NCBI GenBank assembly: GCA_903830625.1
Contig: CAIKUK010000014.1
Location: 772 to 64,771, forward strand
Reading direction: 5' to 3'
Length of the DNA stretch: 64,000 nt
Origin: Candidatus Yanofskybacteria bacterium
GTDB taxonomy: Bacteria > Patescibacteriota > Minisyncoccia > 2-02-FULL-40-12 > GWA2-44-9
Part shown: positions 43,331-63,303 of the stretch, piece after piece
Numbering within the stretch: the first letter of the stretch is position 1
Layout: each line of letters opens with the position of its first letter
The notes under the pieces: model-generated
Databases searched by the model: none
Seen by the model: the letters and a program-made list of their open reading frames with translations, nothing else
What the model was told of the DNA's origin: nothing
Program-made: the position numbers and the translations under genes

Positions 43331-43345
43331 CTTTATTTTATTTTC

Positions 43346-44099: not shown

Positions 44100-44149
44100 T
44101 ACAGGTACATAAGCTTTAAGTCAGTTCTTCACAAAAAGGATGGTGGCAG

Positions 44150-44650: not shown

Positions 44651-44722
44651 AAGGACATGGGTCGGGGCCGGTGCGTGACGCATCGGCCTTTTTTATTTAT
44701 TAAAATCTGCTAAGATACGTAT

Positions 44723-47058: not shown

Positions 47059-47197
47059 TCCCGCACATAACGAGCACCGGCAATACTACTGCGATACTAT
47101 GCGTATTTAATAATAATTAATCATACAGCACCGATAAGCTTGGCTAATACGAACAATCGTATCGCTAAAGCAGTTAGTGCTTGTTATGTGCGGGATG
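47058..47197 (+). repeat. 140-nt hairpin-ended intercistronic element, copy 1 (spans from the last A of the dacA TAA to the mraY ATG)
   Basis: About 86% identical by eye to copy 2 at 56759-56898. Terminal 19-21 nt inverted repeats atcccgcacataacgagcac / gtgcttgttatgtgcgggat. Confidence 0.8.
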
Positions 47198-48265: not shown

Positions 48266-48604
48266 ATGAATTTAAATAAAAACATCTCATTCCATAAAAT
48301 TTTCATACCTATTGGAACTTTAATGCTTGTTTTCGGTTTTATTTTAGGGGTTTATGATTTTGTACAATTAAAAATGGATAAATCAGCTTTTTTGGGACAA
48401 GCTTGGCTTATTTTGATTGTTCTTGGCGTTATATTTTTTATTCTGGGTGTAATTGACCGATCTATTTCAAACAGACGCAATACGTTAGTAGAACCGAAGA
48501 AAGGTTTTATAGAAAATATTGGTTTTTCTTTGCTGTTCGTTGTAATAATTATTGGAGCTTCACTACTCCTATTTATATATGAGCTTGGGGCTAATTGGCG
48601 CTAA
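48266..48604 (+). CDS. Hypothetical small membrane protein (3 TM)
   Basis: 112 aa, hydrophobic, between mraY and ftsW. Confidence 0.4.
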   Translation: MNLNKNISFHKIFIPIGTLMLVFGFILGVYDFVQLKMDKSAFLGQAWLILIVLGVIFFILGVIDRSISNRRNTLVEPKKGFIENIGFSLLFVVIIIGASLLLFIYELGANWR

Positions 48605-48640
48605 ATTACCAATATAGGTTAGTTCTGCTACAATAAAGCC

Positions 48641-49714: not shown

Positions 49715-49733
49715 GAATCCAAGTGATTTTCTC

Positions 49734-49799
49734 GTTGAATTAACTAACTGCTTTAAAATCTAACATATGTTAGATTTTAAAGCAGTTAGTTAATTCAAC
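49734..49799. repeat. Perfect 66-bp palindrome (33-nt arms, no spacer)
   Basis: gttgaattaactaactgctttaaaatctaacat | atgttagattttaaagcagttagttaattcaac, verified base by base; located between convergent ftsW and rpsT. Confidence 0.9.
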
Positions 49800-49805
49800 A
49801 AACTT

Positions 49806-49831
49806 AAAACCCGCTTGTAAAAGCGGGTTTT
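49806..49831. terminator. Bidirectional rho-independent terminator
   Basis: aaaacccgctt gta aagcgggtttt; A-run and T-run flanks serve both the ftsW (+) and rpsT (-) transcripts. Confidence 0.7.
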
Positions 49832-49842
49832 AAGTTAATGAG

Positions 49843-50106
49843 TTATTTCTTTTTGGCTAGTGAGAGGATGGCGTGAGATTTGAGACGGGCGGCTTTGTTG
49901 GCCTTGATAACGCCGGCTTTGGTAGCCTTATCAAGTGATTGATAAACCTTATCCAAAGTGGCCGCTGCTTCTTTAATCTGGTTAGCCGCAACGAGCTTAT
50001 TGAACTGCTTAACGGCGTTCTTGTAGCCGTTAATGCGCTTTAAATTCCCGACTCGTCGGGATTTGGATTGTCTGAGTGCCTTTTTGGCAGATCTGGTGAT
50101 TGGCAT
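49843..50106 (-). CDS. rpsT: 30S ribosomal protein S20
   Basis: 87 aa: MPITRSAKKALRQSKSRRVGNLKRINGYKNAVK... Confidence 0.9.
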   Translation of the reverse strand: MPITRSAKKALRQSKSRRVGNLKRINGYKNAVKQFNKLVAANQIKEAAATLDKVYQSLDKATKAGVIKANKAARLKSHAILSLAKKK

Positions 50107-50150
50107 GTTTGTTTCTGTATAATACTCTATTTCTTACCTTTACGCAATAC

Positions 50151-52151
50151 CTAAGAATCTAAGCCCTTAAGTTTACGGATTTGTTCTTTGATGCCGATAG
50201 CTTGTTCATAGTTGAATTTGCGGATGGCGGTTTCAAGCATGCGCTGGAGTTGTTTGAGGGCTTTTTGTTTGGTGCCGCCGCCGTAAAAGATGACCTCGTT
50301 TTCACCTTCGCCGTAATGCTGTTCTGATTTGCGGCCTGTAGCCATTTCAAATCCGCCGGTTGAACGGGCGATACTAGTCGGAGTGATACCGTGTTTTTTA
50401 TTGTGCTCGATTTGTTTGGCGCGCCGGCGCTGAGTTTCGCCAATAGAGGCTTCCATCGATTTCGTGATTTTGTCGGCATACATGATGACGTGGCCGTCTT
50501 TATGGCGGGCCGCTCGGCCCATGGTTTGAATCAGAGTGGTGGCATTGCGAAGAAAACCTTCTTTGTCGGCATCAAGAATGGCGATGAGCGACACTTCGGG
50601 CAAATCTAAACCTTCCCGCAAAAGATTTACACCGACGATGACGTTATACAGACCCGAACGCAAGTCTTTGATGATCTTAACTCGGTCGAGAGTTTTAATT
50701 TCGGAATGGAGGTAATTGACTTTAATATCGTTTCGGGCGAGGTGTTCGGATAAATCTTCGGCCATACGTTTGGTCAGGGTGGTCACAATGACTCGCTCAT
50801 TCTTGGTGACGCGTTCTTTGATTCGGCCGATAAGATGTTCCACTTGATTAGTGGTGGGCACGATTTCCACGGTCGGGTCTAGCAAACCTGTCGGCCGGAT
50901 AAGCTGTTCAGCGATATTGTCCGGACCGGCCTCGTCCAACTCAAACTTAGCCGGCGTGGCCGAAACATAAACTACTTTCTGAATGCGTTCTTTGAATTCC
51001 ATAAACTTTAAAGGCCGGTTATCAATCGCCGAGGGCAAGCGAAAACCGTATTCTATCAGGGTTGATTTACGGGAGTGGTCGCCTTTATACATGCTGCGCA
51101 GTTGGGGGATGGTAACATGGGATTCGTCAATGATAGTCAGGAATTCGCCTTTGGATTTAAAGAAGTCCAACAGTGAGAAAGCCGGCTCGCCGGCTTTGCG
51201 GAAATCCAAATGTCGGGAATAGTTTTCAATGCCATGGCAATAGCCAGTCTGGCGCATCATTTCCAAGTCGCGCGTGGTTTTTTCCTGCAAACGCGAAGCT
51301 TCCTGATTCTTGCCGATTTTTTTCAAATGTTTGACGTGCTGTTGCAATTCGCTTTTGATGTTTTCAATTGCCAGCTCGATTTTATGGTCGGTAGTAATCC
51401 AGTATTTGGCAGGAAAGATGACTGTGTGAACTATTTTTTCATAGTTCAAATCCTTTGTTTCTAAATCTTCAGGGTCGTTAAGCAAGGCTCGGTACATTCG
51501 GATAATAGTATCGTTTTTGAAAGTGACTTTAGTCACTTCCTGGCCTGTTGGCGAAATGATTTCAATTTCGGTTTGCGTCTTGCGGAAGGCGCCACGCTTT
51601 AATTCTATGTCTTGGACGTATTGCAACCTTAAAAGACTGCGGATAAAATCTGAGGGCTTGATTTGTTTACCTTCAAATAATTCCAGGCCTAAATTTTTGT
51701 ATTCTTCCGGGTTACCAAGGTTGTAGATACACGAGACCGAAGCCACCACAATAACATCATCATGATTCATCATGGCTTGGGTGGTGGCGTGGCGCAACCG
51801 GTCCAGTTCTTCGTTGATCTTGGAGTCCTTTTCAATATAGGTATCAGTGTGGGGAATGTACGCTTCCGGCTGATAATAATCGTAATAGCTAACAAAGTAG
51901 TGGACGGCATTATTTGGAAAAAATTCTTTCATTTCCTTGTAGAGCTGGGCGGCCAGGGTTTTATTATGAGAAATGATGAGCGTCGGCTTTTGATATTGCT
52001 CAATAACTTTGGCCATGGTGAAGGTCTTACCCGAACCGGTCACACCCAAAAGCACCTGACGCTTTTTGCATTGTCCTAAACCTTTGACCAATTTCTTGAT
52101 GGCCTCTGGTTGGTCACCGGTCGGCTGGAATCTTGAAGTTAGTTTGAACAT
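50151..52151 (-). CDS. uvrB: Excinuclease ABC subunit B (UvrB)
   Basis: FKLTSRFQPTGDQPEAIKKLVKGL N-terminus, GVTGSGKTFTMA Walker A, helicase motifs, and a C-terminal UvrB/UvrC interaction segment. The true start is probably ATG 52151 (MFKL...); the track ORF extends 34 codons upstream. Confidence 0.95.
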   Translation of the reverse strand: MFKLTSRFQPTGDQPEAIKKLVKGLGQCKKRQVLLGVTGSGKTFTMAKVIEQYQKPTLIISHNKTLAAQLYKEMKEFFPNNAVHYFVSYYDYYQPEAYIPHTDTYIEKDSKINEELDRLRHATTQAMMNHDDVIVVASVSCIYNLGNPEEYKNLGLELFEGKQIKPSDFIRSLLRLQYVQDIELKRGAFRKTQTEIEIISPTGQEVTKVTFKNDTIIRMYRALLNDPEDLETKDLNYEKIVHTVIFPAKYWITTDHKIELAIENIKSELQQHVKHLKKIGKNQEASRLQEKTTRDLEMMRQTGYCHGIENYSRHLDFRKAGEPAFSLLDFFKSKGEFLTIIDESHVTIPQLRSMYKGDHSRKSTLIEYGFRLPSAIDNRPLKFMEFKERIQKVVYVSATPAKFELDEAGPDNIAEQLIRPTGLLDPTVEIVPTTNQVEHLIGRIKERVTKNERVIVTTLTKRMAEDLSEHLARNDIKVNYLHSEIKTLDRVKIIKDLRSGLYNVIVGVNLLREGLDLPEVSLIAILDADKEGFLRNATTLIQTMGRAARHKDGHVIMYADKITKSMEASIGETQRRRAKQIEHNKKHGITPTSIARSTGGFEMATGRKSEQHYGEGENEVIFYGGGTKQKALKQLQRMLETAIRKFNYEQAIGIKEQIRKLKGLDS

Positions 52152-52179
52152 TTGATACTTTTGCTCAAAGGAGTTCTTA

Positions 52180-52376
52180 TGAAATTTGCCAACACTGTTT
52201 CGTTTGTTCTTTCGATTTTCTTCATCGGCGTCTACTCTTGGGGCAGTGGCCAACTACTTCTCGTCCCGTTCGTGTATTTTTCGGGGTTTTTGGTGGGAAT
52301 GATTTATGGTATGAAAGTCGAGGGGTGGATACCCAAGATCAGCCGACCTCACTTCAAGGACTGCCAACAGGTGTAA
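52180..52376 (+). CDS. Hypothetical small membrane protein (65 aa), divergent from uvrB
   Basis: aaaggag Shine-Dalgarno 6 nt before ATG 52180; two TM helices; a hairpin terminator follows at 52401-52432. Confidence 0.35.
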
Positions 52377-52617
52377 TGGTCATCCACCCAGGGCCCGCTA
52401 CGCGGGCCTCTTCTTTTTCTTTAAATACCTAAATATCTATGCTACTCTTTGATTAGAGCGTAGCCTGTTGAGTTGAATTCGAGGCAAATCCGAGTACTGG
52501 GCTGAGTCGTACTAAAGGTACGGCGAAGACCAGGCGGAGGATTTAACGAAGAAGTCAGCTCAAAGCGTACTGCCGTATGACCGAAGGTCATGGCAGAGCG
52601 ACAGGCAAGCTATAACT

Positions 52618-53283
52618 ATGATTAGCTTTCTGGAAGGTACAATTGAACATTTGGGAGACAAATACATCGTTTTGAACACCGGGGGTATAGGGTATAAGGT
52701 CACACTATGCCCCAGAGTACTGAATATGTTAGCAAAAAGCGATGGTAAAGTCAACCCCTCACCTTTACGAGGATTAGCGACTTTGTCGCGCTCTGATCAA
52801 TCCTCGAAAGGTGAGGGGTCAAGCCCCCAGCCCACAATTAAGCTATTCGTCCACACCCAGATGAATCTTAGGGAGGGTACTTTTGATATGTACGGCTTTG
52901 ATAAAAAATCCGATCTAGACCTCTTCCATTTGCTGACGACTGTCTCCGGTATCGGTCCTAAAGGCGCCCAAAACATCCTTTCGTCGGTGGAACCGGTCCA
53001 TCTTAAAGCCGCGGTCATCAACCAAGACCCGGACTATCTCAAAAAAGTCTCAACCATTAGTCCCAAGATGGCTAACCGGCTGGTTTTGGAGTTGAAAGGC
53101 AAAGTGGACCAGATGGAAGGCGACACCGAAGGCATTGACTTAAGCCAGGACGGCCAAGCCACTGAAGCGCTCATGGTACTCGGCTATTCTGCGTCTCAAG
53201 CCAAAGTAGCTCTCAAAGATACCAAAGCCGGTACCCTCCAGGAAAGGGTGAGGGAAGCGTTGAAGATTTTGGGGAAGAAATAG
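52618..53283 (+). CDS. ruvA: Holliday junction branch migration complex subunit RuvA (with an insertion between domains I and II)
   Basis: MISFLEGTIEHLGDKYIVLNTGGIGYKV ... LLTTVSGIGPKGAQNIL HhH motifs; an extra roughly 45 aa Ser/Pro-rich segment. Confidence 0.85.
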   Translation: MISFLEGTIEHLGDKYIVLNTGGIGYKVTLCPRVLNMLAKSDGKVNPSPLRGLATLSRSDQSSKGEGSSPQPTIKLFVHTQMNLREGTFDMYGFDKKSDLDLFHLLTTVSGIGPKGAQNILSSVEPVHLKAAVINQDPDYLKKVSTISPKMANRLVLELKGKVDQMEGDTEGIDLSQDGQATEALMVLGYSASQAKVALKDTKAGTLQERVREALKILGKK

Positions 53284-53340
53284 ACCCTCTCTTGATTTTC
53301 GGTCAGTATTATGGGATATTAATCCTGGAAAGGCGGTGTT

Positions 53341-53538
53341 ATGACATTTGAAATTCGGTTTGTGGTGGCCAATCTGAATGGTACGGACCAGGCCTGCCGG
53401 GCCACCGAGTGTATGAGAAGGGAATTGCTCAACGTCTTTGTCGGAACCGAAATGGTGAGCGTGGAAGTACAGGAAGTCAAAAAGGTCGATTTTGCTGGGT
53501 TTCAAGAAAGAGAAAAGGAGTGGCGCCGACCGAGCTGA
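53341..53538 (+). CDS. Hypothetical small protein (65 aa), GC-rich
   Basis: ORF with a weak Shine-Dalgarno, followed by the hairpin terminator gggccgc..gcggccc + T6 at 53559-53590. Confidence 0.3.
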   Translation: MTFEIRFVVANLNGTDQACRATECMRRELLNVFVGTEMVSVEVQEVKKVDFAGFQEREKEWRRPS

Positions 53539-53769
53539 CGAGATGAAAATACCTGCCACCGGGCCGCGTTCTGCGGCCCTCGTTTTTTATTAAAAAAGAT
53601 GTTATTTTATTGATATGAAACAACGTTTATTGTTTGTGGCTTGGCTGGGGTTAGGGGTCATTATCGGCGCGCAGTGGCCGGAGTTTTTCGCGCGCTGGAA
53701 TAATTTAGTCTGGCTGGTGGTCATCCTTGCCGCCGGATTTGCTTTGTATCGCAAGGATTAATTTTGCCG

Positions 53770-54690
53770 ATGAAATCATTTCTACAAAGCAAAGAGTGGC
53801 TTGAATTTCATAAATCTGCCGGACGCAAAACCTGGCGATTTGATGATGGTAAAGTAATTGCCAATATTATTCGGCATGATTTACCCTTGGGGATGAACTA
53901 TTTATACATTCCTCATGGCCCGGAAATTAATTTAGACTATATTACCGGCGGATTAAAAAACGAACTGGAACATTTTATATCCTATCTTAAAAATCTGGCC
54001 CGCGAACAGAAGTCTATTTTTATAAAAATCGAACCTTTGCATGATAGCGCTATTGAATTGCTTTATGGCGCTGGTTTCAAAAAATCATCCAAAAAGGTTC
54101 AGCCCAATCGGTCGGTAATTATTGATTTGGAAAAACCGGAATATGATTTACTAGGCGCGATGCATCATAAGACGCGGTATAACATCAAAGTGGCCGAAAG
54201 GAATGGCTTGAAATTTGTGACCGGCAACAATATCGATGTCTTTTGGGAATTACTAAAACACACGGCTAAGAACGATAATTTCTCCACTCATCCAAAAGAA
54301 TATTATGAAAAATTATGTTCTCCGCCAACTGGCGGAACCGGCCTTAAGACCGAAATGGTGTTTGTCCAACATGAAGGCGTTTCTATCACCGGAGCGGTCC
54401 TCCTGGCTTATGGCGACACTGTCTACTATTTGCATGGCGCGATGGATCGCAGTCCGAAGTATAAACCAATGATGGCCCCATATCTGTTGCATTGGGAAGT
54501 AATGAAATGGGCCAAGGGTTATGGAATTAAATATTATGACCTCTGGGGCATTGATGCCAAAAAATGGCCTGGCGTTACTCGTTTTAAATTGGGCTGGGGC
54601 GGCCGGCAAGTTGAATATCCCGGCGCTTTTGATATGCCTATCCGCAAGTTTTGGTTTTTAATGTATAAAATTATAAGAAAAATATTTTAA
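53770..54690 (+). CDS. FemAB family peptidoglycan interpeptide-bridge aminoacyltransferase (GNAT-fold)
   Basis: N-terminal FLQSKEWLEFHK, similar to the FemAB N-terminal pattern; two GNAT-like halves; adjacent to a Mur ligase. Confidence 0.65.
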   Translation: MKSFLQSKEWLEFHKSAGRKTWRFDDGKVIANIIRHDLPLGMNYLYIPHGPEINLDYITGGLKNELEHFISYLKNLAREQKSIFIKIEPLHDSAIELLYGAGFKKSSKKVQPNRSVIIDLEKPEYDLLGAMHHKTRYNIKVAERNGLKFVTGNNIDVFWELLKHTAKNDNFSTHPKEYYEKLCSPPTGGTGLKTEMVFVQHEGVSITGAVLLAYGDTVYYLHGAMDRSPKYKPMMAPYLLHWEVMKWAKGYGIKYYDLWGIDAKKWPGVTRFKLGWGGRQVEYPGAFDMPIRKFWFLMYKIIRKIF

Positions 54691-55961
54691 TGATCCAGGA
54701 AACAGCGCTGGATAAAATTTTATATCAGGTCAAAAAAATAATTCCTGCGTCGGTCTTTGAATTTTTTCAGCCGGCTTATCACCGGTTGTTGGCTTACGGC
54801 GGGGCGTTGCGATACGGGTTTCCATCTCACAGCATGAAGTTAATCGGCGTGACGGGCACAAAAGGCAAATCGACGACGGTTTTCATGATTACCAAAATTC
54901 TGGAAGCTTCGGGCGCGAATGTGGCGGCGATTGGGTCGCTGGGATTTAAGATTAAAGATAAAGAATGGCCGAATACGCTGAAACAAACCATGCCCGGCCG
55001 CTTCCGATTACAAAGATTTTTAGCCGAAGCTAGAAAAGCGGGCTGTGATTTCGTGGTTTTGGAAGTAACCTCGGAAGGCATTAAACAATACCGTCATCTG
55101 GGGATTAAATTTGATTCGGCGGTGTTCGTGAATATTCATCGCGAGCATTTGGAAAATCACGGCTCATTTGAAAATTACATCAAAGCCAAACAAAAATTGT
55201 TTGAGGCGACGAAACGGGTCCATATCTTAAACGCCGACGAAGCGCGCATCGCTGATTTTGATAAATTTACCGCTGAAAAGAAAATTACCTTTGGCATCAA
55301 TCAGGGCGATATCCGGCCGAGCAATGTTCTGGCCAGTGAAAGCGAATCAGAATTTGACCTGAACGGCCAGCATGTCCATTTGCATGTCGGCGGGATGTTC
55401 AACGTGCTCAATGCTCTCGGCGCCTGGGCCGTGGCTTCGGTTTATGATATTGAACCTTCCATAATCGCGGAAGCGCTTTCCAATTTACAAACTATTCCAG
55501 GCCGTCTGGAATTTGTCCAAAAACAGCCATTTAGTGTGGTGGTAGATTATGCTCACACGCCGGATTCATTGAAGATGGTTTATGAAACCCTTAAGCCGAT
55601 GAATGGCCGATTGATTTGCGTTCTGGGCGCAGCTGGCGGGGGACGAGACAAATGGAAAAGACCGGAATTCGGCGCCATTGCCGACCGGTTGGCCGATGAA
55701 ATTATTTTAACCGACGAAGACCCTTATGAAGAAGATCCGTGCCAGATTGTTTATGATGTTCAGCAAGGCATCAGTCGTACCGATCATGTGGAAGTCATCA
55801 TGGACCGTAAAGAAGCGATTGGCCGAGCTATTGCCATTGCCCGACCTGGTGATACGGTCGTCATTACGGGTAAGGGCTCAGAGGTTTCGATGGCCGTCGC
55901 CGGCAATAAGAAAATTCCCTGGTCGGACCGTGATATTGTCCGGAGCTTTCTTAATAATTAA
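54690..55961 (+). CDS. Mur ligase family protein (MurE/MurT-like, lacking the N-terminal domain)
   Basis: LIGVTGTKGKSTT P-loop, central Mur ligase domain and a C-terminal domain; 423 aa. Confidence 0.7.
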   Translation: MIQETALDKILYQVKKIIPASVFEFFQPAYHRLLAYGGALRYGFPSHSMKLIGVTGTKGKSTTVFMITKILEASGANVAAIGSLGFKIKDKEWPNTLKQTMPGRFRLQRFLAEARKAGCDFVVLEVTSEGIKQYRHLGIKFDSAVFVNIHREHLENHGSFENYIKAKQKLFEATKRVHILNADEARIADFDKFTAEKKITFGINQGDIRPSNVLASESESEFDLNGQHVHLHVGGMFNVLNALGAWAVASVYDIEPSIIAEALSNLQTIPGRLEFVQKQPFSVVVDYAHTPDSLKMVYETLKPMNGRLICVLGAAGGGRDKWKRPEFGAIADRLADEIILTDEDPYEEDPCQIVYDVQQGISRTDHVEVIMDRKEAIGRAIAIARPGDTVVITGKGSEVSMAVAGNKKIPWSDRDIVRSFLNN

Positions 55962-55999: not shown

Positions 56000-56461
56000 A
56001 TGCCCGAAGAGGTTGAAGTCCAATTAGCCAAAAAAGAAGAGCGTCCATCGTTTAGAACTGCTCACGCGCCAGGCCTATCCTGGCTGGTTGTTATTCTACT
56101 AATGATCCTCGCCGCCTTTTCGGTTATGCATTTCGGTAGTCTTCAACCGGCCGTCAGTCCTCTGCCGTCGGGCTTGGTTGATAGTTCTACACCAACGGTC
56201 CAACCTCGCATCTATACTATCTCTTATGATGTCGGCGTGTTTAGTCCGACTAACCTTCGGATTCATGCTGGTGATACGGTCCGGTTCAAGAATGATAGTA
56301 TTTTCCCCATTAGAATTGTTTCCGAAGATTTGGTCGGTTTTGATAGTATTGGCGACATTCCGCAGGGGAGTTATTTCTCGTTTACTTTTGCAGCCCGAGG
56401 CACATTCAGTTATCATAATAATCATAACAGCGGTCAAGCTGGCGCTATCATTGTCAGGTAA
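56000..56461 (+). CDS. Membrane-anchored cupredoxin-like domain protein (hypothetical)
   Basis: N-terminal TM then LRIHAGDTVRFKNDS...GTFSYHNNHNSGQAGAIIV, a beta-sandwich/cupredoxin-like pattern. Confidence 0.4.
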   Translation: MPEEVEVQLAKKEERPSFRTAHAPGLSWLVVILLMILAAFSVMHFGSLQPAVSPLPSGLVDSSTPTVQPRIYTISYDVGVFSPTNLRIHAGDTVRFKNDSIFPIRIVSEDLVGFDSIGDIPQGSYFSFTFAARGTFSYHNNHNSGQAGAIIVR

Positions 56462-56477
56462 ATTTATTTTTTCACGC

Positions 56478-56759
56478 ATGACCAATCCGCTTACGATGCA
56501 AGTTGAGTCCCGAATGGGGGCTGTATTCATTTCTTTATTGGCGATATTTTTTACGGGTGTTCTTTTCGTGGCTATCAAAAACTACGAGTCTGATCAAATT
56601 GTGCTGGATGCGTCCGTTACTCAAGTTAAATCAATGTCTTCAACTGAGCGTCAGATTATTGCTCAATGGATTAAAGATAATAATATTCCGGTACCCGACG
56701 GCCAAGGTTATCGTTACTTGATTCAGGAATATCCGAATCGGCCGTGGCTTAGTTATTAA
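56478..56759 (+). CDS. Hypothetical small membrane-anchored protein (93 aa)
   Basis: ATG 56478 in the same frame as the longer track ORF 56178 (whose 5' part overlaps the previous gene); one TM helix. Confidence 0.35.
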   Translation: MTNPLTMQVESRMGAVFISLLAIFFTGVLFVAIKNYESDQIVLDASVTQVKSMSSTERQIIAQWIKDNNIPVPDGQGYRYLIQEYPNRPWLSY

Positions 56760-56898
56760 TCCCGCACATAACAAGCACTGGCAATACTACTGCGTCACTA
56801 TGCGGATATAAATAATATTAATCATACAGCACTGATAAGCTTGGATAATACATAAAATCGTATTGCTCAAGCAGTTGGTGCTTGTTATGTGCGGGATG
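56759..56898 (+). repeat. 140-nt hairpin-ended intercistronic element, copy 2 (spans TAA of the upstream ORF to the ATG of the presenilin-like protease gene)
   Basis: Same length and termini as copy 1 at 47058-47197, with about 20 substitutions. Confidence 0.8.
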
Positions 56899-57729
56899 AA
56901 AATTCAGCCCAATCTTTTTCTGAAAGAAGCGTTAATGTTCGGCGGGACTTTCGCTCTGGGTTTGTTTGTGGCTTATCAATATGTGATTCAGCTCCCAAAC
57001 GTAGAAATTATCCAACCCTCGAACATCACTACTGGAGATATAGTTGGTTTTATTCTAATATTCGTGGCAGTTTGGTTGGTTAGTCGTATTCGGCAGTTAT
57101 CAAGTTGGGTGTTCTGGATATTCATTTCTATTTTAATTCTTGCCGGTTCCCAAATTGTGATTGCTTCCGTGGCGCCGTTCCCACTAGATATTATCGGAAG
57201 CCTGCTGATTTTGGCCACTTTTCTTGTTGCCCATACTGTTATTACGCACGATATCGCCATTGCTTTGGGTATCGCCGGTCTTGGCGCTGCTGTCGGCATT
57301 ATTATTACACCTACAGTCGGCGTCGTGGTTCTGGTCCTGATGTCCTTCTATGATATTATTGCCGTATATAAGACCCGGCATATGGTCCGGATTGCTGAAA
57401 GTATGATTCGTTCTGGCGCCGTATTCGGTTTTATTATTCCGCCCAGTACTGAACTTTTTATGGCTTCGCGGCATGAGGCCAAATCTCGAATCGGAACTGA
57501 TTTTATGATTTTGGGTTCGGGTGATATTGGTTTGCCTTTAATTTTTATCAGTTCTTTGGTCCGCCAATCTTTGCCTGAAGCGATTATCGTCGCTTGTTTC
57601 GCCATGCTCGGACTGCTTTTAACTCATATATTGTTTGTCAGCCAGACTAAACGTCAACCGATGGCCGCGTTGCCGCCGATTGCGACGATGACCCTAATCG
57701 GGTATGCCGTGGCATTGGTGATTATATAA
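56896..57729 (+). CDS. Presenilin/signal-peptide-peptidase-like GxGD intramembrane aspartyl protease (A22-like)
   Basis: YD (LMSFYDIIAVY), GxGD (LGSGDIGLP) and PAL (MAALPP) motifs in the canonical order within a roughly 9-TM protein; an alternative start is ATG 56935. Confidence 0.6.
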   Translation: MKIQPNLFLKEALMFGGTFALGLFVAYQYVIQLPNVEIIQPSNITTGDIVGFILIFVAVWLVSRIRQLSSWVFWIFISILILAGSQIVIASVAPFPLDIIGSLLILATFLVAHTVITHDIAIALGIAGLGAAVGIIITPTVGVVVLVLMSFYDIIAVYKTRHMVRIAESMIRSGAVFGFIIPPSTELFMASRHEAKSRIGTDFMILGSGDIGLPLIFISSLVRQSLPEAIIVACFAMLGLLLTHILFVSQTKRQPMAALPPIATMTLIGYAVALVII

Positions 57730-57732
57730 CTT

Positions 57733-59091
57733 ATGGCTAAACTTACTTTTTATGGCGGGGCCCAATCAGTGACAGGGTCAAACTATCTTCTTGAATCGGG
57801 AGGCGTTAAGATTCTTGTTGATTGCGGGATGTTCCAAGGTTCAAGTGATGCTGAAGAGAAGAACTACGGACCGTTTCCTTACAAGCCATCCGAACTTTCA
57901 GCCGTGTTTATCTCTCACAGCCACGCGGACCATACCGGCCGTTTGCCGAAATTGCATAAAGAAGGTTTCCGAGGAAAGCTCTATGCCACTTCTCCGACGC
58001 TGGATATGACCTTTATCGCTTTGCCGGACAATCTTTCTCTTATGGAAGATGCGGCTGCCAGAGCTAATCATTCGCCTTTATTCTCCCAGGAAGACCTGGA
58101 TGGTTTATCGGGTTTGGCTGAAGGTGTTAGCTATGGCCAGGAAATAGAACTTGGCCCTGATTTTTCGGCCGTGTTTCATGACGCCGGCCATATTTTGGGT
58201 TCGTCCATCATTGAATTCAGATTTGAAGGCAAAAAGATTTATTTCTCGGGCGATTTGGGCAATCCGCCGACTCCGCTTTTGAAACCGTTTGAATATCCGC
58301 TCGATGCGGACTATATAATTGTCGAATCTGCCTATGGCGACCGGGTTCATGAAGACCGCTCAACTCGTAAACAAAAACTCCGCTCCATTGTTAAGGACAC
58401 AATAACTAAAGGCGGCACCTTAATGATTCCGTCATTCGCGATGGAACGCACTCAAGAACTGCTTTTTGAATTGAACGATATGCATAACGCAGGAGAAATT
58501 CCTGATGTGCCGATGTTCCTTGATTCGCCGCTAGCTATCCTTTTGACCGAAGTTTATCAAAAGTATCCGGAATATTTTAATAAAGAAGCAGCCTATATCA
58601 TTAAATCGGGCGATGATTTATTTAATTTTCCTGGACTGACATATTGCCGGACCAGCGAAGAATCAAAGAATATTAACGGCATTCTCGGTCCGAAAGTGAT
58701 CATTGCCGGTTCGGGTATGTCGACTGGCGGCCGTATTCTCCACCACGAACGCCGATATCTTTCGGACCCGAATTCCACCCTGCTCTTTATTGGCTTTCAG
58801 GCCGAAGGGACGCTCGGCCGAAAGATATTCGACGGCGCCAAGGAAGTCAAAATTTTTGATGAAAAAGTGCCGATTCATTGTCGGATTGAAGCTATCGGTG
58901 GCTATTCCGCTCACGCCGACCAACCGACATTGCTGAGCTGGATTGCCAAAGGCGCCGAAGCCGGCCATTTAAAAAATGTCTTTGCGGTTCAAGGTGAAAC
59001 GGCTTCATCCGCCACTTTATGCGGTCTGATCACTGCTTCCACCCATGTTCCTGCAACCGTGCCTAATCTAAATCAAACCGTTGAGTTGTAA
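57733..59091 (+). CDS. MBL-fold beta-CASP family ribonuclease (RNase J/CPSF-like)
   Basis: ISHSHADHTG (HxHxDH), GDLGNPPTP, beta-CASP-like middle region, and a C-terminal HADQ motif. Confidence 0.75.
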   Translation: MAKLTFYGGAQSVTGSNYLLESGGVKILVDCGMFQGSSDAEEKNYGPFPYKPSELSAVFISHSHADHTGRLPKLHKEGFRGKLYATSPTLDMTFIALPDNLSLMEDAAARANHSPLFSQEDLDGLSGLAEGVSYGQEIELGPDFSAVFHDAGHILGSSIIEFRFEGKKIYFSGDLGNPPTPLLKPFEYPLDADYIIVESAYGDRVHEDRSTRKQKLRSIVKDTITKGGTLMIPSFAMERTQELLFELNDMHNAGEIPDVPMFLDSPLAILLTEVYQKYPEYFNKEAAYIIKSGDDLFNFPGLTYCRTSEESKNINGILGPKVIIAGSGMSTGGRILHHERRYLSDPNSTLLFIGFQAEGTLGRKIFDGAKEVKIFDEKVPIHCRIEAIGGYSAHADQPTLLSWIAKGAEAGHLKNVFAVQGETASSATLCGLITASTHVPATVPNLNQTVEL

Positions 59092-59136: not shown

Positions 59137-59883
59137 ATGCCTACAGAAGAAACAAAACCAGAAGTAGCTCAAACTCCAAACCAGGGGACGATGAATGTGC
59201 CGGCGTCTAAATTGCCACTTGAACGTGACCCAGGTGATTTTCGGTCATCGTTGCATTGGCGCGTTTTTCGTATTCTAGCCGAGTTTGTTGATGGCTGGCA
59301 GTTTTTGGCCGACTTCAAAAAAACGATTACCTTTTTCGGTTCGGCCCGTTTCCAGCCCGGTGAGAAATGGTATGAAGAAGCCCGTACTCTGGGCAAACTT
59401 CTGGCTGGCGCCGGATTCGGGGTGGTCACCGGTGGCGGCCCGGGCATTATGCAGGCCGGTAACCAAGGCGCAGTCGAGGGCGGCGGCGATTCTATCGGTT
59501 TAAATATTAAATTGCCGACTGAACAGCGTATCAATCCCTATGTCAGAGAATCTTCTGCTTTTCACTATTTCTTTGTCCGAAAACTGATGATGTCGTACGC
59601 TGCCCGAGCCTACGTGTTCTTTCCGGGTGGATTGGGCACGCTTGATGAAGCCTTTGAAATTCTCACGCTTATCCAAACCAAAAAAATCTCCGATAAAATT
59701 CCAGTGGTGCTGGTGGGTAAAGAATTTTGGGACCCAATCAATAAATGGCTGAGCGAGGAAATATTAACCAAGTTGCATGCCATTGATGAAGAGGATTTGA
59801 AACTTTACACCATCGTTGACACGGCTCAAGAAGCCTTTGAACTCCTCAAAAACGCGCCGGCGCGTGAAGACTTCTTCTATTAG
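59137..59883 (+). CDS. LOG family protein (TIGR00730; cytokinin riboside 5'-monophosphate phosphoribohydrolase-like)
   Basis: TFFGSARF ... VVTGGGPGIMQAGNQGA ... PGGLGTLDE motifs; the N-terminal roughly 40 aa may be an extension. Confidence 0.8.
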   Translation: MPTEETKPEVAQTPNQGTMNVPASKLPLERDPGDFRSSLHWRVFRILAEFVDGWQFLADFKKTITFFGSARFQPGEKWYEEARTLGKLLAGAGFGVVTGGGPGIMQAGNQGAVEGGGDSIGLNIKLPTEQRINPYVRESSAFHYFFVRKLMMSYAARAYVFFPGGLGTLDEAFEILTLIQTKKISDKIPVVLVGKEFWDPINKWLSEEILTKLHAIDEEDLKLYTIVDTAQEAFELLKNAPAREDFFY

Positions 59884-59985
59884 CGGTAATAATAAAGACT
59901 GGAATGCGTATTTAAAAACGTCGTCTGGGCTTGATTTTTGTTAAAATAGTAGTAAAATATGGAGTAGTTTCCAGAACCATTAAAC

Positions 59986-62316
59986 ATGAGCGAATTCAAA
60001 ATAAACAATATTATTATCCCCGAGGAATTACCGGTTATTGCTCTCAAAAATACGGTTCTATTTCCGAAACTGGTCATTCCCATTATTATCCAGCGCCCTA
60101 AATCAATCAGTGCGTTGGAGTTTGCGCAGACCCACAATCGGCTCGTTCTCTTTATGACCCAAAAAAACAGCGAAGATGACATCTCCGCGAACGATTTATA
60201 TAAAGTGGGCACTATCGGCCGGATTGTTTCCATTTTCAAACTTCCGGACGGCTCATCGAAAATTGACGTTGAAGGTCTCATCCGAGCTCGGATTACCGAC
60301 TTTGTTACTGAAGAGCCATTCATTCGCGTCAATGCCGAGCCGATGGCGCTGATTATCCGCGATAATCTGGACGAAAAAGCTATTCTTAGGCGAGCCATCG
60401 AACAATTTCGGGTTATCTCCGAGGCCCGTTCTTTCCCGACCATCCTGCCCGAAATTATTTACATGATGTCCCAACTCAAAGACACCGAACACATTGCCAG
60501 CTTGATGACAGTGAATTTAAACTTGGAAGTGGAGAACCAACAACGTATTCTGGAACTGGAAAGCCTGCTTGATATCTTGCGTCAGCTCAATATGTACCTC
60601 TCACGTGAAGTTCAAATTCTTGAAACCGAAAAAGATGTCGTCAAAGAAACCAAAAAGCAAATCGGCAAAATGCAGAAAGAGCTTTTCCTGAGAGAGCAAT
60701 TAAAGAGTATTGAAAAAGAACTGGGCGTGGATGATGAAAAAGACGAACTGGTTTCCGTTCGCGCCAAAATAATGTCCGCCGGTATGCCCAAAGATATCCA
60801 AGAAAAAGCCCTCAAAGAATTAAGCCGTTTGGGCAAGATGCCGGCCTTCAATCCCGAAGGTTCATATATCCGCAGTTACCTCGATCTTTTAAGCGAGTTG
60901 CCGTGGTCTAAAAAAACAAAGGAGAAAATTGATCTGAAAGAAGCCGAAAAGATATTAAATGAAGACCACTACGGCTTGCCTAAAGTTAAGGAACGTATTT
61001 TGGAATATCTGGCGGTTCAAAAACAAGTTGGTAAATTAAAAGGTCCGATTCTATGTTTAGTCGGTCCGCCGGGTACCGGTAAAACTTCAGTCGGCCAGTC
61101 CATTGCTCGGGCGCTGGGCCGTAAATTTGCTCGCATGTCGCTTGGCGGTTTGCGCGACGAAGCGGAAATCAGGGGTCATCGCCGAACCTATGTCGGAGCC
61201 ATGCCGGGCCGCCTGATTCAAGGCATTCAAAACGTCAAAGTTAAAAATCCGGTCTTTATGCTGGACGAGATTGATAAAGTCGGTTCGGATTTTCGCGGCG
61301 ACCCATCTTCTGCTTTATTGGAAGCTTTGGACCCCCAACAGAACCATGCTTTCTCGGACCATTATCTAGAGGTGCCATTTGATTTGTCCGACGTGTTATT
61401 TATTGTCACGGCCAATCGCTTGGATACGATTCCGCCAGCCTTGCGCGACCGCTTGGAAATTATTGAATTTCCGGGCTATACCGAATTGGAAAAATTCCAT
61501 ATCGCCAAAAATTTTCTTCTGCCCAGACTTTTTAAAGATCATGGCTTAAAAAAGCGAAGCTTAGTATTCCAGGATTCGGCCGTGATGGATATTATTCGCA
61601 ATCATACCCGCGAAGCCGGGGTCCGCGAATTGGAACGCCAACTGGCTAATGTTATCCGAAAAGTAACTCGTAAAATCGTCGAATCGTCTTCGACTAAAAC
61701 TATCAGCATTAATCCCAAAGCCGTCGATACTTATCTTGGTCCGATTAAGTATACCTATGATGTGGCTGAGCGGAAGGATGAAATCGGCCGAGCCACTGGT
61801 TTGGCCTGGACGCCGGTTGGCGGAGACTTGATGATGATTGAAGCTATCCGCATGCCTGGGACAGGTAAACTAATCCTGACGGGTCAGTTAGGCATTGTGA
61901 TGAAAGAATCCGCCCAGGCAGCTTTGTCGTGGGCTCGGGCTTATGCTGCCCGCAGTGGCGTCAAAGAAGATTTGCGCAAAGAAGATATTCATTTGCATGC
62001 GCCGTCCGGCGGCGTTAAAAAAGAAGGTCCATCGGCCGGTATTGCCATTACCACCACTTTAGTTTCACTGTTTCTTAAAAAACCTGTCCGGAAAGAAGTG
62101 GCCATGACGGGTGAAATAACACTCCGGGGCAAAGTGCTCGGCATCGGCGGTCTCAAAGAAAAAGTGCTGGCCGCTCATCGGGCGGGTATCAAAATCGTCG
62201 TCGCGCCGTTTGAAAATAAAAAAGACATGATTGATATTCCCAAAGAAATTCAACGTGACATCAAATTTATTTTCGTGAAAACAATGGAGGAAGTACTCAA
62301 GGTGGCGCTCAAATAA
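59986..62316 (+). CDS. lon: ATP-dependent protease Lon
   Basis: N-terminal LON domain, GPPGTGKTS Walker A, and a C-terminal protease domain with PKEGPSAGIAI (catalytic Ser) and K. Confidence 0.95.
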   Translation: MSEFKINNIIIPEELPVIALKNTVLFPKLVIPIIIQRPKSISALEFAQTHNRLVLFMTQKNSEDDISANDLYKVGTIGRIVSIFKLPDGSSKIDVEGLIRARITDFVTEEPFIRVNAEPMALIIRDNLDEKAILRRAIEQFRVISEARSFPTILPEIIYMMSQLKDTEHIASLMTVNLNLEVENQQRILELESLLDILRQLNMYLSREVQILETEKDVVKETKKQIGKMQKELFLREQLKSIEKELGVDDEKDELVSVRAKIMSAGMPKDIQEKALKELSRLGKMPAFNPEGSYIRSYLDLLSELPWSKKTKEKIDLKEAEKILNEDHYGLPKVKERILEYLAVQKQVGKLKGPILCLVGPPGTGKTSVGQSIARALGRKFARMSLGGLRDEAEIRGHRRTYVGAMPGRLIQGIQNVKVKNPVFMLDEIDKVGSDFRGDPSSALLEALDPQQNHAFSDHYLEVPFDLSDVLFIVTANRLDTIPPALRDRLEIIEFPGYTELEKFHIAKNFLLPRLFKDHGLKKRSLVFQDSAVMDIIRNHTREAGVRELERQLANVIRKVTRKIVESSSTKTISINPKAVDTYLGPIKYTYDVAERKDEIGRATGLAWTPVGGDLMMIEAIRMPGTGKLILTGQLGIVMKESAQAALSWARAYAARSGVKEDLRKEDIHLHAPSGGVKKEGPSAGIAITTTLVSLFLKKPVRKEVAMTGEITLRGKVLGIGGLKEKVLAAHRAGIKIVVAPFENKKDMIDIPKEIQRDIKFIFVKTMEEVLKVALK

Positions 62317-62324
62317 TCGCTCGA

Positions 62325-62520
62325 TCTTTCTCATTTTCTTCCGGCTTCCTCTCGGGCTGGCTCTAGAAATAATCTCTCATTTCTCTGACCGTCCGAAGCC
62401 ACTTCTGTCAGGCCATGCGGACTTAGGCCGTTCCTGACATCTTCGGACCGGTACCCAGAGAAATCTCTAGATTATTTCTGATCCAGCTTCCAATCGTGCA
62501 GATGGAAGAAAATGAGAAAG
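62325..62520. repeat. Roughly 196-nt imperfect palindrome (long nested hairpin) immediately downstream of lon
   Basis: Outer arms ctttctcattttcttcc / ggaagaaaatgagaaag; nested pairs tctagaaataatctct~agagaaatctctagattattt and gaccgtccgaag~cttcggaccggt; centre near atgcggacttagg. Confidence 0.6.
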
Positions 62521-62622
62521 ACCTCGCTATCTCAACAAGTTTTTAGGTTTGCTAAAAAACAAGAAGTGTTGTATTGTATTGGCGTCTTGCTTAACAGTGC
62601 TACTTAACAAAGGAGTTCTTTG

Positions 62623-63303
62623 ATGCCGAACATTTTCGTTGGTATTCTCGTTGTTCCATCGGTTTTGATCCTCGGGATATGGCTTCTGACTGCACTGAGA
62701 GCTTTGAAGAAAGCAAGGGGGGTTATTAAAGACAAGGAGGAGCGGAACGGGTGGGTCATGGCGGTGCTCGAAGCGAATTCCAGAATTGTCGCGGAGTTGC
62801 GCAAGCAAGGATTTACCATGGGCGAAGGGGACGATGATATAGATTCGTATCGCTGTTTCCTTCAAACCAGGGAGACTAGGCCTTCCGGTGTCGTGATCAA
62901 CGTTATGGCCGCTTTGAACCGAAGCTTGAAACCCGCGTACTACTATGTCCGTATTTTCGTTGTTTTTCCTCACCAAGGCAGTATGGATGAGGGAATTCCC
63001 GCGCTGAAGAGAGCAATAGCCGAAGAGGTACACAGGAAGTTCTCACCTTTGTCCCAAGAGTATCTGATTGGCCAGATTCCCATGAATTTTGCAGACATCG
63101 CGCGCCGGATTGACGAAGCCGTCAAATTCTACGAACGGGCGCTCGAAAAGGCCAAACCAGAATTCCCCTTTCTGACAAAGCGGGTCCAGGCGGCGGCGAG
63201 CGTGAAGGAAGAACTGGTTGTCGCGAGAAACGACATCCAGATTATGATCAATGGACTCATCGCTTCATTGGCAGACGACAAAGAGTTGTCGGCGACAGGT
63301 TGA
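62623..63303 (+). CDS. Hypothetical GC-rich protein with an N-terminal TM helix (226 aa)
   Basis: aaggag Shine-Dalgarno 8 nt upstream; the terminator hairpin at 63331-63371 follows; no family recognised. Confidence 0.45.
   Translation: MPNIFVGILVVPSVLILGIWLLTALRALKKARGVIKDKEERNGWVMAVLEANSRIVAELRKQGFTMGEGDDDIDSYRCFLQTRETRPSGVVINVMAALNRSLKPAYYYVRIFVVFPHQGSMDEGIPALKRAIAEEVHRKFSPLSQEYLIGQIPMNFADIARRIDEAVKFYERALEKAKPEFPFLTKRVQAAASVKEELVVARNDIQIMINGLIASLADDKELSATG

Follow-up and report, generated by a model that had tools for sequence, protein, structure and literature searches.

A 64,000-nt stretch of a Candidatus Yanofskybacteria contig, hereafter the window, carries two copies of a previously undescribed 139-base hairpin repeat, each between the stop codon of one gene and the start codon of the next. 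Copy 1 (47058-47196, + strand) is flanked by a D-Ala-D-Ala carboxypeptidase gene and mraY. Copy 2 (56759-56897, + strand) is followed by the gene of a presenilin-type signal-peptide peptidase (PF06550, E = 6e-16) and scores 148 bits with nhmmer against the profile of type A, the subfamily to which both copies belong. A preliminary description had placed a second copy upstream of this protease gene, and the copy is real: it shares 88% identity with 47054-47198 across 145 nt, and the window has four matches to the 18-nt arm pattern, one for each arm of the two copies, where chance would give 0.07. Its length had been given as 140 nt, because base 56898, the G of the downstream ATG, was counted in; the unit bounded by the inverted repeats is 139 nt. 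The features used below are the following.

56757-56759, + strand: TAA stop of the upstream gene, geneB (about 81-95 aa), its final A being base 1 of copy 2
56759-56778, + strand: 5′ arm of the terminal stem P1 of copy 2, ATCCCGCACATAACAAGCAC, whose first base completes the upstream TAA
56769-56771, + strand: second in-frame TAA, in the 5′ arm of copy 2
56781-56787, + strand: 5′ strand of helix P2 of copy 2, GCAATAC, pairing with 56860-56866
56789-56793, + strand: segment Y of copy 2, ACTGC, complementary to 56871-56875
56806-56823, + strand: A+T-rich central (apical) region of copy 2 with an ATAAT core, alike in types A and B
56860-56866, + strand: 3′ strand of P2 of copy 2, GTATTGC, with TAATAC at 56846-56851 as alternative partner in a local 3′ hairpin
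56871-56875, + strand: segment Y′ of copy 2, GCAGT, in the 3′-side bulge from P2 to P1
56878-56897, + strand: 3′ arm of P1 of copy 2, GTGCTTGTTATGTGCGGGAT, its last two bases being the AT of the start codon
56887-56889, + strand: in-frame ATG inside the 3′ arm of copy 2, the start used by gene callers
56896-56898, + strand: ATG of the presenilin-type signal-peptide peptidase gene (56896-57729), with AT from copy 2
47056-47058: TAA stop of the D-Ala-D-Ala carboxypeptidase gene, upstream of copy 1
47091-47097, + strand: GCGATAC, in copy 1 only, perfectly paired with GTATCGC at 47159-47165
47195-47197: ATG of mraY, downstream of copy 1
53617-53619, + strand: start codon of a gene for a 48-aa membrane protein, the unoccupied counterpart of the L018/L033 element site

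Gene callers take the ATG within the 3′ arm of copy 2; the gene on record for the 277-aa peptidase begins there, and the predicted protein begins MCGM...

Stem, interior helices and conservation

The arms read ATCCCGCACATAAC[A/G]AGCAC and its reverse complement, and they pair into the 20-bp terminal stem P1. The pairing is perfect in copy 2 and has a single G.T at arm position 15 in copy 1, and in this the arm sequences agree with the preliminary description. Predicted RNA folds reach -60 kcal/mol for copy 2 (z = -9.5) and -53.6 kcal/mol for copy 1 (z = -7.2). Both subfamilies of the repeat, types A and B, have a P1 of exactly 20 perfect bp followed by an asymmetric 3′ bulge in which CAAGC is conserved. 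At the 7-bp P2 position, type B has a helix of unrelated sequence that covaries among its subtypes, and the architecture of P2 plus 3′ bulge is common to the two types despite this. Alternative internal helices had also been proposed; the complementarities exist and the P2 architecture is conserved in both subfamilies, but the GCGATAC:GTATCGC helix is private to copy 1 and is missing from the same-locus mraY copies L006 and L029. In copy 1, GCAATAC at 47080-47086 is complementary to the 3′ heptamer GTATCGC with one A.C mismatch. The minimum-free-energy fold of copy 2 takes the local 3′ hairpin (56846-56851 with the 3′ strand of P2) instead of P2, and the Y:Y′ pairing crosses P2, as a pseudoknot or an alternative pairing.

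Between genomes, copies at one locus retain 38-40 of 40 arm bases and are 82-92% identical in the interior, whereas third codon positions of the adjacent genes are only 48-61% identical, near saturation. Conservation so far beyond that of the neighbouring third positions indicates that the element is held by purifying selection. Copies cluster according to locus and not genome, and concerted evolution was rejected as the source of the conservation, same-locus identity being 90% against 72-84% within a genome (the window and palsa_1334 genomes). Selection on the terminal stem, which the preliminary description had suggested, is upheld by this same-locus conservation of the arms, 39-40 of 40 bases (97-100%) where neighbouring third positions are near saturation, and not by covariation: within type A, 18 of the 20 P1 pairs never vary among 21 distinct sequences. 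Single changes in P1 leave A.C mismatches (7) about as often as G.U wobbles (5), so the stem has no RNA-strand-specific signal, and its covariation comes down to a pair that is polymorphic, A-T or G-C, and a compensatory double change in L044. P1 is conserved as sequence, not through covariation. The internal helices of type A are invariant and therefore uninformative, and the covariation that had been proposed as a check on the element is found in the interior helices of type B, where eight pairs change on both sides among only seven sequences. These seven sequences have a covariation score of 0.241, which 0 of 500 shuffles reach; shuffles give 0.131 and slid controls at most 0.085.

Arms that are invariant on both sides suggest sequence-specific recognition, and the element could be a cis-regulatory RNA or the protein-binding site of a regulon, whose factor would recognise arms and interior and control the downstream genes. 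The conserved interior with its possible pseudoknot or switch would suit such a role, as would a start codon sequestered in the stem. We nevertheless hold it to be very improbable, since the downstream genes (mraY, greA, adk, rplO, sodA, the peptidase) have no functional theme, a perfect 20-bp stem is implausible as a switch, presence and absence among close relatives would be unusual for an operator, and Rfam gave no match even at E <= 10. The sole gathering-level Rfam match in the window is a tRNA, and at E <= 10 types A and B returned only hairpin-like microRNA and snoRNA chance matches far below threshold; a known RNA family was accordingly rejected for either subfamily. Hammerhead, twister and HDV-like ribozymes, an idea prompted by CUGAUAAG, CAAGCCC and the crossing helices, were likewise discarded, as no model matched.

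A repeat family at start codons

The family comprises 26 copies of 135-139 nt, which lie at about 15 different genes. They come from genomes and metagenomes of related Candidatus Yanofskybacteria, with about 7 or more copies per genome, and the family is confined to one clade of these Patescibacteria (CPR). Every copy is full length, none being degenerate or partial in the 341 kb searched with nhmmer. The downstream genes supported by Pfam include those of the presenilin-type peptidase, a beta-CASP/RNase J-like protein, a DUF5671 protein, an FKBP-type protein and mraY; greA, adk, sodA, rplO, csoR-like, hsp20-like and PAP2-like genes are assigned from N-terminal sequence only. Phage and plasmid collections gave no matches, and an origin from either was set aside. 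Literature searches for CPR repeats or for repeats abutting start codons returned nothing relevant.

All copies end in ...GCGGGAT/G, and the ATG so formed begins the downstream ORF; in all 26, the last two bases of the element (AT) and the flanking G make up the downstream start codon. At seven loci a long upstream ORF terminates at a TAA whose final A is base 1 of the element. At other loci an ORF, or a mini-ORF with its ATG 4-5 nt upstream, stops in the 5′ half at TAA 11-13 or TGA 33-35. The adk copy (L020) has short upstream ORFs that stop later, at positions 21-23 or in the central region, and the greA copy (L010) is a clear exception, with no ATG-initiated upstream ORF ending within the 5′ arm. 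Between L017 and L037, a 7-nt deletion in the latter has brought the upstream TAA to the base of the stem. The element has stop codons in all three frames, and the ATG within its 3′ arm, 11 nt from the 3′ base of the stem, is in frame with the downstream gene. Orientation is constant inside each subfamily (roughly 11 type A and 6 type B loci); the ends are symmetric, and ATG would be rebuilt in either orientation.

Translation signals in the window give these junctions their setting. A Shine-Dalgarno-like motif precedes only 9 of the 48 window genes, 19 of the 48 have TAnnnT with its end 5-9 nt ahead of the ATG, against 8.9% of random positions, and there are three TAATG overlaps. Judged by these motifs, this is a genome with few Shine-Dalgarno sites and probably many leaderless mRNAs.

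Another reading is a mobile promoter, with the A+T-rich centre or the 3′ arm driving the downstream gene. The ATAAT-containing block is conserved in both subfamilies, the 3′ arm TGTTATGTG is similar to the extended -10 motif TGnTAnnnT, which is frequent in this genome, fixed orientation would be accounted for, and Correia elements can create promoters (PMC2649163). This explanation is highly unlikely all the same: a consensus scan of both copies called no sigma-70-type promoter, the motif in the arm is without its last T and stops only 4 nt short of the ATG, against 5-9 nt for the candidate -10 boxes of the genome, and a central start would leave a leader of roughly 75 nt without a Shine-Dalgarno site. 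Interior covariation and the exact stop-codon junction would also go unexplained. An intrinsic terminator within the element was likewise rejected along with the sigma-70 promoter, none being called and no U-tract following the stem.

Empty sites, mobility and known repeats

Empty sites occur in relatives at the mraY, geneB/rnj, small-ORF, DUF5671 and FKBP junctions, and the site occupied in L018 and L033 is empty in the window itself. Five relatives have an empty mraY junction; their MraY proteins are 74-89% identical over the N-terminal 170 codons and 79-90% over the full protein. At geneB/rnj, tatTAATGAAATTA in the empty form (L040) corresponds to tacTAA[TCCCGC..GCGGGA]TGAGATTA in the occupied one (L034); a TAATG stop/start overlap is one example of an empty site in a related genome. 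At TAATG sites the duplication amounts to 0-2 bp (A or AT), which is indistinguishable from the repeat ends, and several leaderless-type loci have a 4-6-nt duplication of the start-codon region (ATGNN) at the left junction. A spacer of 20-27 nt that is present in the empty relatives is missing from the occupied allele at two loci, so the history there is more than simple insertion. In its interior, the L034 copy matches the mraY-locus copy from the same metagenome series at 96% identity, which marks one copy as recently duplicated from another locus and shows that the family has been mobile.

In several respects the family looks like a MITE, with 20-bp arms, a length of 135-139 nt where MITEs stay under about 300 bp, no coding capacity, about 15 loci and presence or absence among relatives; one orientation per subfamily, no degenerate copies and no neutral decay are not what a MITE would show. 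One exact-pattern scan each of the genome, metagenome and viral collections, covering incomplete genomes, returned only short elements or chance single-arm matches in place of a parent insertion sequence, so a divergent parent may still exist. The single-arm matches (L001, L003, L004, L008, L009, L011, L013, L014, L019, L023, L025, L026, L028, L031, L032 and L036) were dismissed as chance, since the coding DNA in which they lie is unrelated and mostly G+C-rich. Of the 48 genes called in the window, 36 were scanned and none of these has a transposase domain, the other 12 lying at 41951-46132, 48266-55961 and 59137-63303.

A purely selfish MITE without any role would survive where it is harmless, its conservation reflecting recent spread or gene conversion. 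Its terminal inverted repeats, small size, absence of an ORF, many loci, empty sites and one recent duplicate all fit, and another hairpin, 73 nt long and with identical six terminal bases, sits at the same start codon in L015 and L045, where reading it in frame is enough for it to be tolerated. We consider this reading unlikely by a wide measure, since same-locus copies stand far above neighbouring synonymous sites and cluster by locus, degenerate or partial copies are missing from those 341 kb, orientation is fixed although the symmetric ends restore ATG either way, and interior helices of type B covary.

Several known repeats invite comparison. The Correia elements (CREE/NEMIS) of Neisseria are about 100-155 bp long, with terminal inverted repeats of 20-26 bp and no ORF; they are co-transcribed, form long hairpins, influence the expression of adjacent genes and are RNase III substrates (PMC2649163; PMC10969869). 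Like them, the Yanofskybacteria element is a small ORF-less hairpin with terminal inverted repeats, dispersed beside genes. Correia elements have a TA target duplication, hundreds of copies, both orientations, varied distances to genes and possible promoters, whereas the present family, with its few copies per genome, always abuts the start codon in one orientation; its flanks read TA/ATCCC...GGGAT/G, with no TA on the right and hence no Correia-type TA duplication. The two are not known to share sequence similarity. ERIC/IRU and YPAL-type repeats are imperfect palindromes, about 127-170 bp long, that lie between genes in transcribed parts of operons, with orientation-dependent effects on mRNA (PMC10969869). 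ERIC is unrelated in sequence to our element and follows stop codons at variable positions, and is not fused to stop and start. The mycobacterial interspersed repetitive units (MIRU), intercistronic repeats of operons which Supply and colleagues are said to have described in 1997, reportedly contain small ORFs that overlap the flanking stop and start codons and are thought to preserve translational coupling. MIRU units are 46-101-bp direct tandem repeats without long terminal inverted repeats and are translated throughout, whereas the Yanofskybacteria element would be bridged by a stem. Rickettsia palindromic elements, insertions of about 150 bp, are tolerated in compact genomes since they leave the host gene expressible (PMC10969869). 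They lie inside ORFs and are translated in frame, which the stops in all frames preclude for the 139-nt element; only the related 73-nt hairpin of L015 and L045 behaves in this way. REP/REPIN sequences, imperfect palindromes of 20-40 nt that have a conserved GTAG-type tetranucleotide at the 5′ side and pair as inverted doublets, were ruled out together with IS200/IS605-derived palindromes, the arms being neither palindromic nor hairpins themselves and no constant flanking tetranucleotide being present. An integron attC, suggested by a ...ATAAC/GTTAT... core, was also rejected, since the flanking genes belong to the core and keep their synteny, and each arm is a perfect 20-mer.

A proposed bridge from stop to start

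Any explanation starts from what is directly seen, namely a repeat family, its abutment to codons, fixed orientation, empty sites, recent copying, conservation and covariation of the interior. The reading that we put forward, tentatively and with somewhat less than even confidence, is a MITE-like insertion that bridges stop to start by termination-reinitiation and was later retained by selection. Termination-reinitiation at overlapping or adjacent stop and start codons is an established coupling mechanism (PMC6728339; PMC12548453). By origin, the element would be a non-autonomous mobile element of the MITE kind that inserted at start codons, either in TAATG overlaps or at the ATG of leaderless-looking genes. 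Such insertions would be tolerated through element ends that rebuild the signals they split, the A at base 1 restoring the upstream TAA and the terminal AT, with the following G, restoring ATG. The element would then be transcribed within the mRNA; we infer this transcription, and with it the leaderless mRNAs and reinitiation itself. With few Shine-Dalgarno sites, an internal AUG may depend mainly on ribosomes that have only just finished translating close by, and the 20-bp stem would bring the upstream stop to the base of the helix that also holds the downstream AUG. Where the gene looks leaderless, insertion would create a mini-ORF of 5-12 codons that could serve as the upstream ORF. The terminating ribosome would melt the lower stem, free the adjacent AUG and reinitiate, and the downstream gene would still be translated despite the 139-nt insert. 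Once the element stood ahead of an essential gene, its structure would be needed and might come under purifying selection.

Some observations sit poorly with this proposal. Without a suitable upstream ORF at the greA copy (L010), reinitiation cannot be the sole route to the start codon. A stem alone would suffice for reinitiation, which leaves the invariant stem sequence, the conserved interior and its covarying helices unexplained, and a stem of the predicted -60 kcal/mol containing the AUG would block ribosomes that do not come from upstream. Against a MITE origin stand the lack of any autonomous element with the same ends in our scan and of a fixed-length target-site duplication. Fixed orientation could reflect a strand-specific insertion mechanism and not RNA function, and it is ambiguous because nearly all genes here share one strand.

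The main rival is RNA processing of the punctuation kind, which we regard as possible but unlikely. Here an RNase III-type or other endonuclease would cut the 20-bp stem and separate the cistrons, leaving the 5′ end of the downstream mRNA at or near the in-arm AUG (-9) or the terminal AUG, to be translated by 70S ribosomes as a leaderless or nearly leaderless message, with the hairpin remnants stabilising the new ends. In the intercistronic RNase III sites of T7 and in rRNA intervening sequences, a long stem around an insert or spacer is cut, which separates functional RNAs, and an asymmetric internal loop is typical. The 20 perfect bp and asymmetric 3′ bulge of our element resemble these sites, though the latter have no invariant arms and do not make up a dispersed family of repeats. 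With an ATG 11 nt from the 3′ base and a TAA at 11-13, a staggered mid-stem cut could leave ends at a stop and a start, and the conserved, covarying interior would position it. Processing would also accommodate the greA copy, which has no upstream ORF, and a genome that looks largely leaderless, and in Neisseria the inverted repeats of Correia elements within mRNAs are sites of RNase III cleavage (PMC2649163; PMC10969869). That said, cleavage of our element is a prediction in which the mid-stem position is assumed, RNase III specificity does not require an invariant 20-bp sequence, and neither an upstream stop exactly at the base of the stem nor the deletion from L017 to L037 would be explained.

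A further reading, which we rate as conceivable but improbable, is a dedicated mobile translation bridge for a bacterium with few Shine-Dalgarno sites and probably many leaderless mRNAs, in which either a terminating 70S ribosome would be handed over the base of the 20-bp stem to the next start codon or the element would be excised to release mRNAs starting with AUG. By analogy, the handover form would be a bacterial counterpart of ribosome shunting, and the excision form one of mitochondrial tRNA punctuation. In both forms a transposable element would bring its own stop and start signals and be indispensable once inserted.

Little is known of gene expression in CPR/Patescibacteria, whose genomes here are largely without Shine-Dalgarno sites, and a repeat ahead of essential genes (mraY and, by N-terminal sequence, adk, rplO and greA) offers a testable handle on the translation of internal cistrons. 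For annotation, calls at the ATG within the repeat add a false MCG- N-terminus, and the related 73-nt element has been annotated as protein. A 2024 review of prokaryotic MITEs makes no mention of start or stop codons, and a survey covering 183,232 genomes is silent on both start codons and Patescibacteria. The family would also be a clear example of a mobile element so built that translation does not notice it, and which was afterwards kept.

Two window copies and a wider family

The preliminary description had placed a second copy of a hairpin element upstream of a presenilin-like protease gene, and this copy is present, matching the first with 88% identity across 145 nt that include shared flanking bases. 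Both copies are 139 nt long:

Window 47058-47196: copy 1, between a D-Ala-D-Ala carboxypeptidase gene (5′) and mraY (3′)
Window 56759-56897: copy 2, 5′ of the gene for a presenilin-type signal-peptide peptidase

Inverted arms of 20 bp enclose each copy (ATCCCGCACATAAC[A/G]AGCAC at one end, its reverse complement at the other), and the terminal stem of copy 1 contains the one G.T that had been described for it. By chance 0.07 matches to the arm pattern would be expected in the window, where four are present. Both copies are predicted to fold far more stably than shuffled sequences, copy 1 at −53.6 kcal/mol (z = −7.2) and copy 2 at −60 kcal/mol (z = −9.5).

Exact-pattern scanning for the arms covered one genome per species and then metagenomes, and extra contigs were fetched through protein homologues (related contigs carry labels such as L034). 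Among the genomes, the Candidatus Yanofskybacteria MAG palsa_1334 (PLYL01) has seven occurrences of the arms and another MAG of the Patescibacteria has one, the remaining genome matches being chance 18-mers; metagenomes added 14 copies and the fetched contigs three. In all, 26 copies precede about 15 distinct downstream genes. These include mraY, the peptidase, a beta-CASP/RNase J-like gene, a DUF5671 membrane protein and an FKBP-type isomerase, all backed by Pfam, then greA, adk, sodA, rplO, csoR-like, hsp20-like and PAP2-like genes named by N-terminal sequence only, and several small proteins. The family has two subfamilies. Both copies in the window belong to type A; type B, with subtypes B1-B3, shares the arms and resembles type A in its A+T-rich centre but has an otherwise different interior. 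Profiles of both types (nhmmer) found no partial or degenerate copies in 341 kb of related sequence, Rfam gave no match at gathering score or E <= 10, and none was found in viral contigs or in plasmid and phage records.

Other features of the window and the related contigs are as follows:

Window 1-27000: lower-G+C block (0.37-0.43), a surface polysaccharide cluster with glycosyltransferases, FkbM-type methyltransferases, sugar dehydratases, a Wzy-like ligase and a flippase-like protein
Window 49734-49799: perfect loopless 66-bp palindrome (33 + 33 nt) in the 128-nt gap between a convergent ftsW-like gene and rpsT, a gap of only ~40 nt in L039 and L040; it has the 13-mer TAAAGCAGTTAGT in common with copy 1, which could be chance
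L015 2394-2466 (minus strand), L030 2818-2890, L045 ~99-171: a different, 73-nt hairpin, ATCCCGTTAGAAGT...ACTTCTAACGGGAT, with the same six terminal bases as the element; it sits at the DUF5671 start codon, where L007 and L044 have a type B1 element, spans exactly 25 codons, in frame and stop-free, and appears in annotation as an extended N-terminus (MNPVRSLARNLVASPEDLGGATSNG-); its inner hairpin has one compensatory change between L015 and L045
L033 1345-1510: 84-nt element with ends TCCCGATTT...AAATCGGGA, inside a ~490-nt insertion relative to L018; on its flanks is a diverged duplication, ~35 nt long, of the region where a FemAB-like gene starts (ATGAATAAA...TGG)
L037 ~9263-9316: 54-nt hairpin with perfect 25-nt arms, separated by 2 nt from an ORF with an ATG start that follows it; its sequence is unrelated to that of the element family

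Fusion to stop and start codons

In both window copies the first base of the element belongs to the TAA of the upstream ORF and its final two bases belong to the downstream ATG, so the element occupies the intergenic gap exactly. All copies end in ...GCGGGAT followed by G, and the resulting ATG begins the downstream ORF. On the left side, a long upstream ORF terminates at TA|A at seven loci, enters the element by four codons at one (TAA at positions 11-13) and reaches a TGA at positions 33-35 at another. Promoter-proximal loci have an ATG 4-5 nt 5′ of the element, opening a mini-ORF of 5 codons (ATG NNA TCC CGC ACA TAA) or 12 that stops within the 5′ half of the element, with a TGnTAnnnT-like motif 5-7 nt before the ATG. 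The short ORFs upstream of the adk copy (L020) extend further, to stops at positions 21-23 or within the central region. The greA copy (L010) clearly departs from this pattern: it has no upstream ORF that starts with ATG. A second in-frame ATG lies within the 3′ arm, 9 nt before the terminal one, and is chosen by gene callers, giving proteins beginning MCGM...; automatic starts fall there (window 56887-56889 and 47186-47188; proteins P0002, P0121 and P0136) or deeper within the element, and such gene calls are likely annotation artefacts.

Among 48 window genes, only nine have a Shine-Dalgarno-like motif, while 19 have TAnnnT (often TGnTAnnnT) ending 5-9 nt before the ATG, a configuration found at 8.9% of random positions. 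TAATG overlaps join three co-directional gene pairs (at 1500, 46132 and 54690). The motif counts suggest that many mRNAs are leaderless or very short-leadered, and internal cistrons probably rely on coupling.

Translational coupling is the function that we favour, at a confidence just short of even. At nearly every copy the upstream gene or a leaderless mini-ORF would bring a ribosome to the stem from its 5′ side. The ribosome would terminate at the stem base or just within it and, having unwound the lower stem, would leave the neighbouring AUG(s) of the 3′ arm unpaired; reinitiation after termination is a well-documented process where stop and start codons adjoin (PMC6728339, PMC12548453). 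The main rival, which we consider rather unlikely, is that the element would be processed by an RNase III-type enzyme, in the way reported for Correia elements (PMC2649163, PMC10969869), possibly releasing a near-leaderless downstream mRNA; the greA copy and the constraint on the interior would be easier to explain by processing than by coupling. Weaker readings are a purely selfish element, a mobile promoter and a regulon operator or riboregulator.

Stem, interior and constraint

P1, the terminal stem, has 20 bp in both types and is almost invariant in sequence, 18 of its 20 pairs showing no variation at all in type A. Single changes are transitions only, and on the mRNA strand A.C mismatches (7) are about as frequent as G.U wobbles (5), so P1 carries no signal specific to RNA, apart from one pair that is polymorphic (A-T or G-C) and a single compensatory change of C-G to T-A, at C14-G126, seen solely in the type B2 copy before an FKBP-type gene (L044 1940-2077). 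Inside P1 both types form a 7-bp helix, P2:

Type A: GCAATAC:GTATTGC
Type B1: TTGTCTC:GAGACAG
Type B2: GTTTC:GAAAC
Type B3: ATCTC:GAGAT

An 8-11-nt bulge with CAAGC follows 3′ of P2, and a segment of it is complementary to the bases just past the P2 5′ strand (ACTGC:GCAGT in type A, GGGC:GCCC in type B; absent in L002). This crossing pairing could form a pseudoknot or an alternative structure. The P2 3′ strand of type A can also pair locally with TAATAC, which corresponds to the alternative internal helices hinted at earlier; GCGATAC:GTATCGC is private to window copy 1. In the interior of type B, eight pairs are altered on both sides and the covariation score is 0.241 against 0.131 for shuffles (0/500 reach it) and <=0.085 for slid controls, in seven sequences only.

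Selection on the terminal stem, as the preliminary description proposed, is borne out across genomes. Same-locus copies keep 38-40 of 40 arm bases and are 82-92% identical in their interiors, whereas identity at third codon positions of the adjoining genes is just 48-61%. With the exception of the L034/L029 pair, copies group by locus rather than genome: the window mraY copy, for instance, matches that of palsa_1334 at 90% identity and the other window copy at 83%. Gene conversion therefore does not account for this conservation. No model fully explains the invariant arm sequence and the conserved interior.

Empty sites and a probable mobile origin

The mraY junction holds the element in the window, L006 and L029 and is empty in five relatives (TAAatATG, TAAtATG, TAAaacaaATG and similar) whose MraY is 74-89% identical over the N-terminal 170 codons compared and 79-90% over the full protein. 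Between geneB, a small gene upstream of copy 2, and the RNase J-like gene rnj, L040 has a plain TAATG overlap and L034 has TAA[TCCCGC...GCGGGA]TG. Another site, occupied in L018 and L033 with ATGAA(A) flanking the element on both sides, is empty in the window (ATGAAACAACG at 53617). Duplications of 4-6 nt starting with ATG also occur at L012, L017 and L007a/L044, and imperfectly at L020 and L024; in L037, relative to L017, a 7-nt deletion took out the duplicated ATG and set the upstream TAA at the stem base. In its interior the L034 copy shares 96% identity with L029, the mraY-locus copy of the same metagenome series, and is nearer to it than to own-locus copies of other genomes; it is thus a recent copy or conversion. 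Not all data fit simple insertion: occupied alleles at the DUF5671 and FKBP junctions lack spacers of 20-27 nt that are present in empty relatives. No parent element encoding a transposase was found in the genome, metagenome and viral scans.

Compared with L018, L034, L039 and L040, gene content in window 56000-59091 varies from the cupredoxin-like to the RNase J-like gene, geneB and the peptidase gene each being present or absent. The same upstream gene and element precede different downstream genes in the window and L034, and in L005 and L021, so rearrangements may occur at the 3′ edge of the element.

Orientation is constant across all type A loci and likewise across all type B loci, which is noteworthy because the symmetric ends would restore an ATG either way round. 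Whether A and B share it by descent is ambiguous by sequence alone, and the shared P2/bulge architecture argues in favour. Correia, ERIC, RPE and MIRU are bacterial palindromic repeats resembling the element, which differs from them in its exact fusion to stop and start codons, fixed orientation, low copy number coupled with strong per-locus conservation, and host lineage; recent MITE surveys mention neither start-codon association nor Patescibacteria. The data fit an element that is of MITE-like mobile origin, restores with its own ends the stop and start codons that it separates, and persists only at start codons, functionally constrained once inserted.
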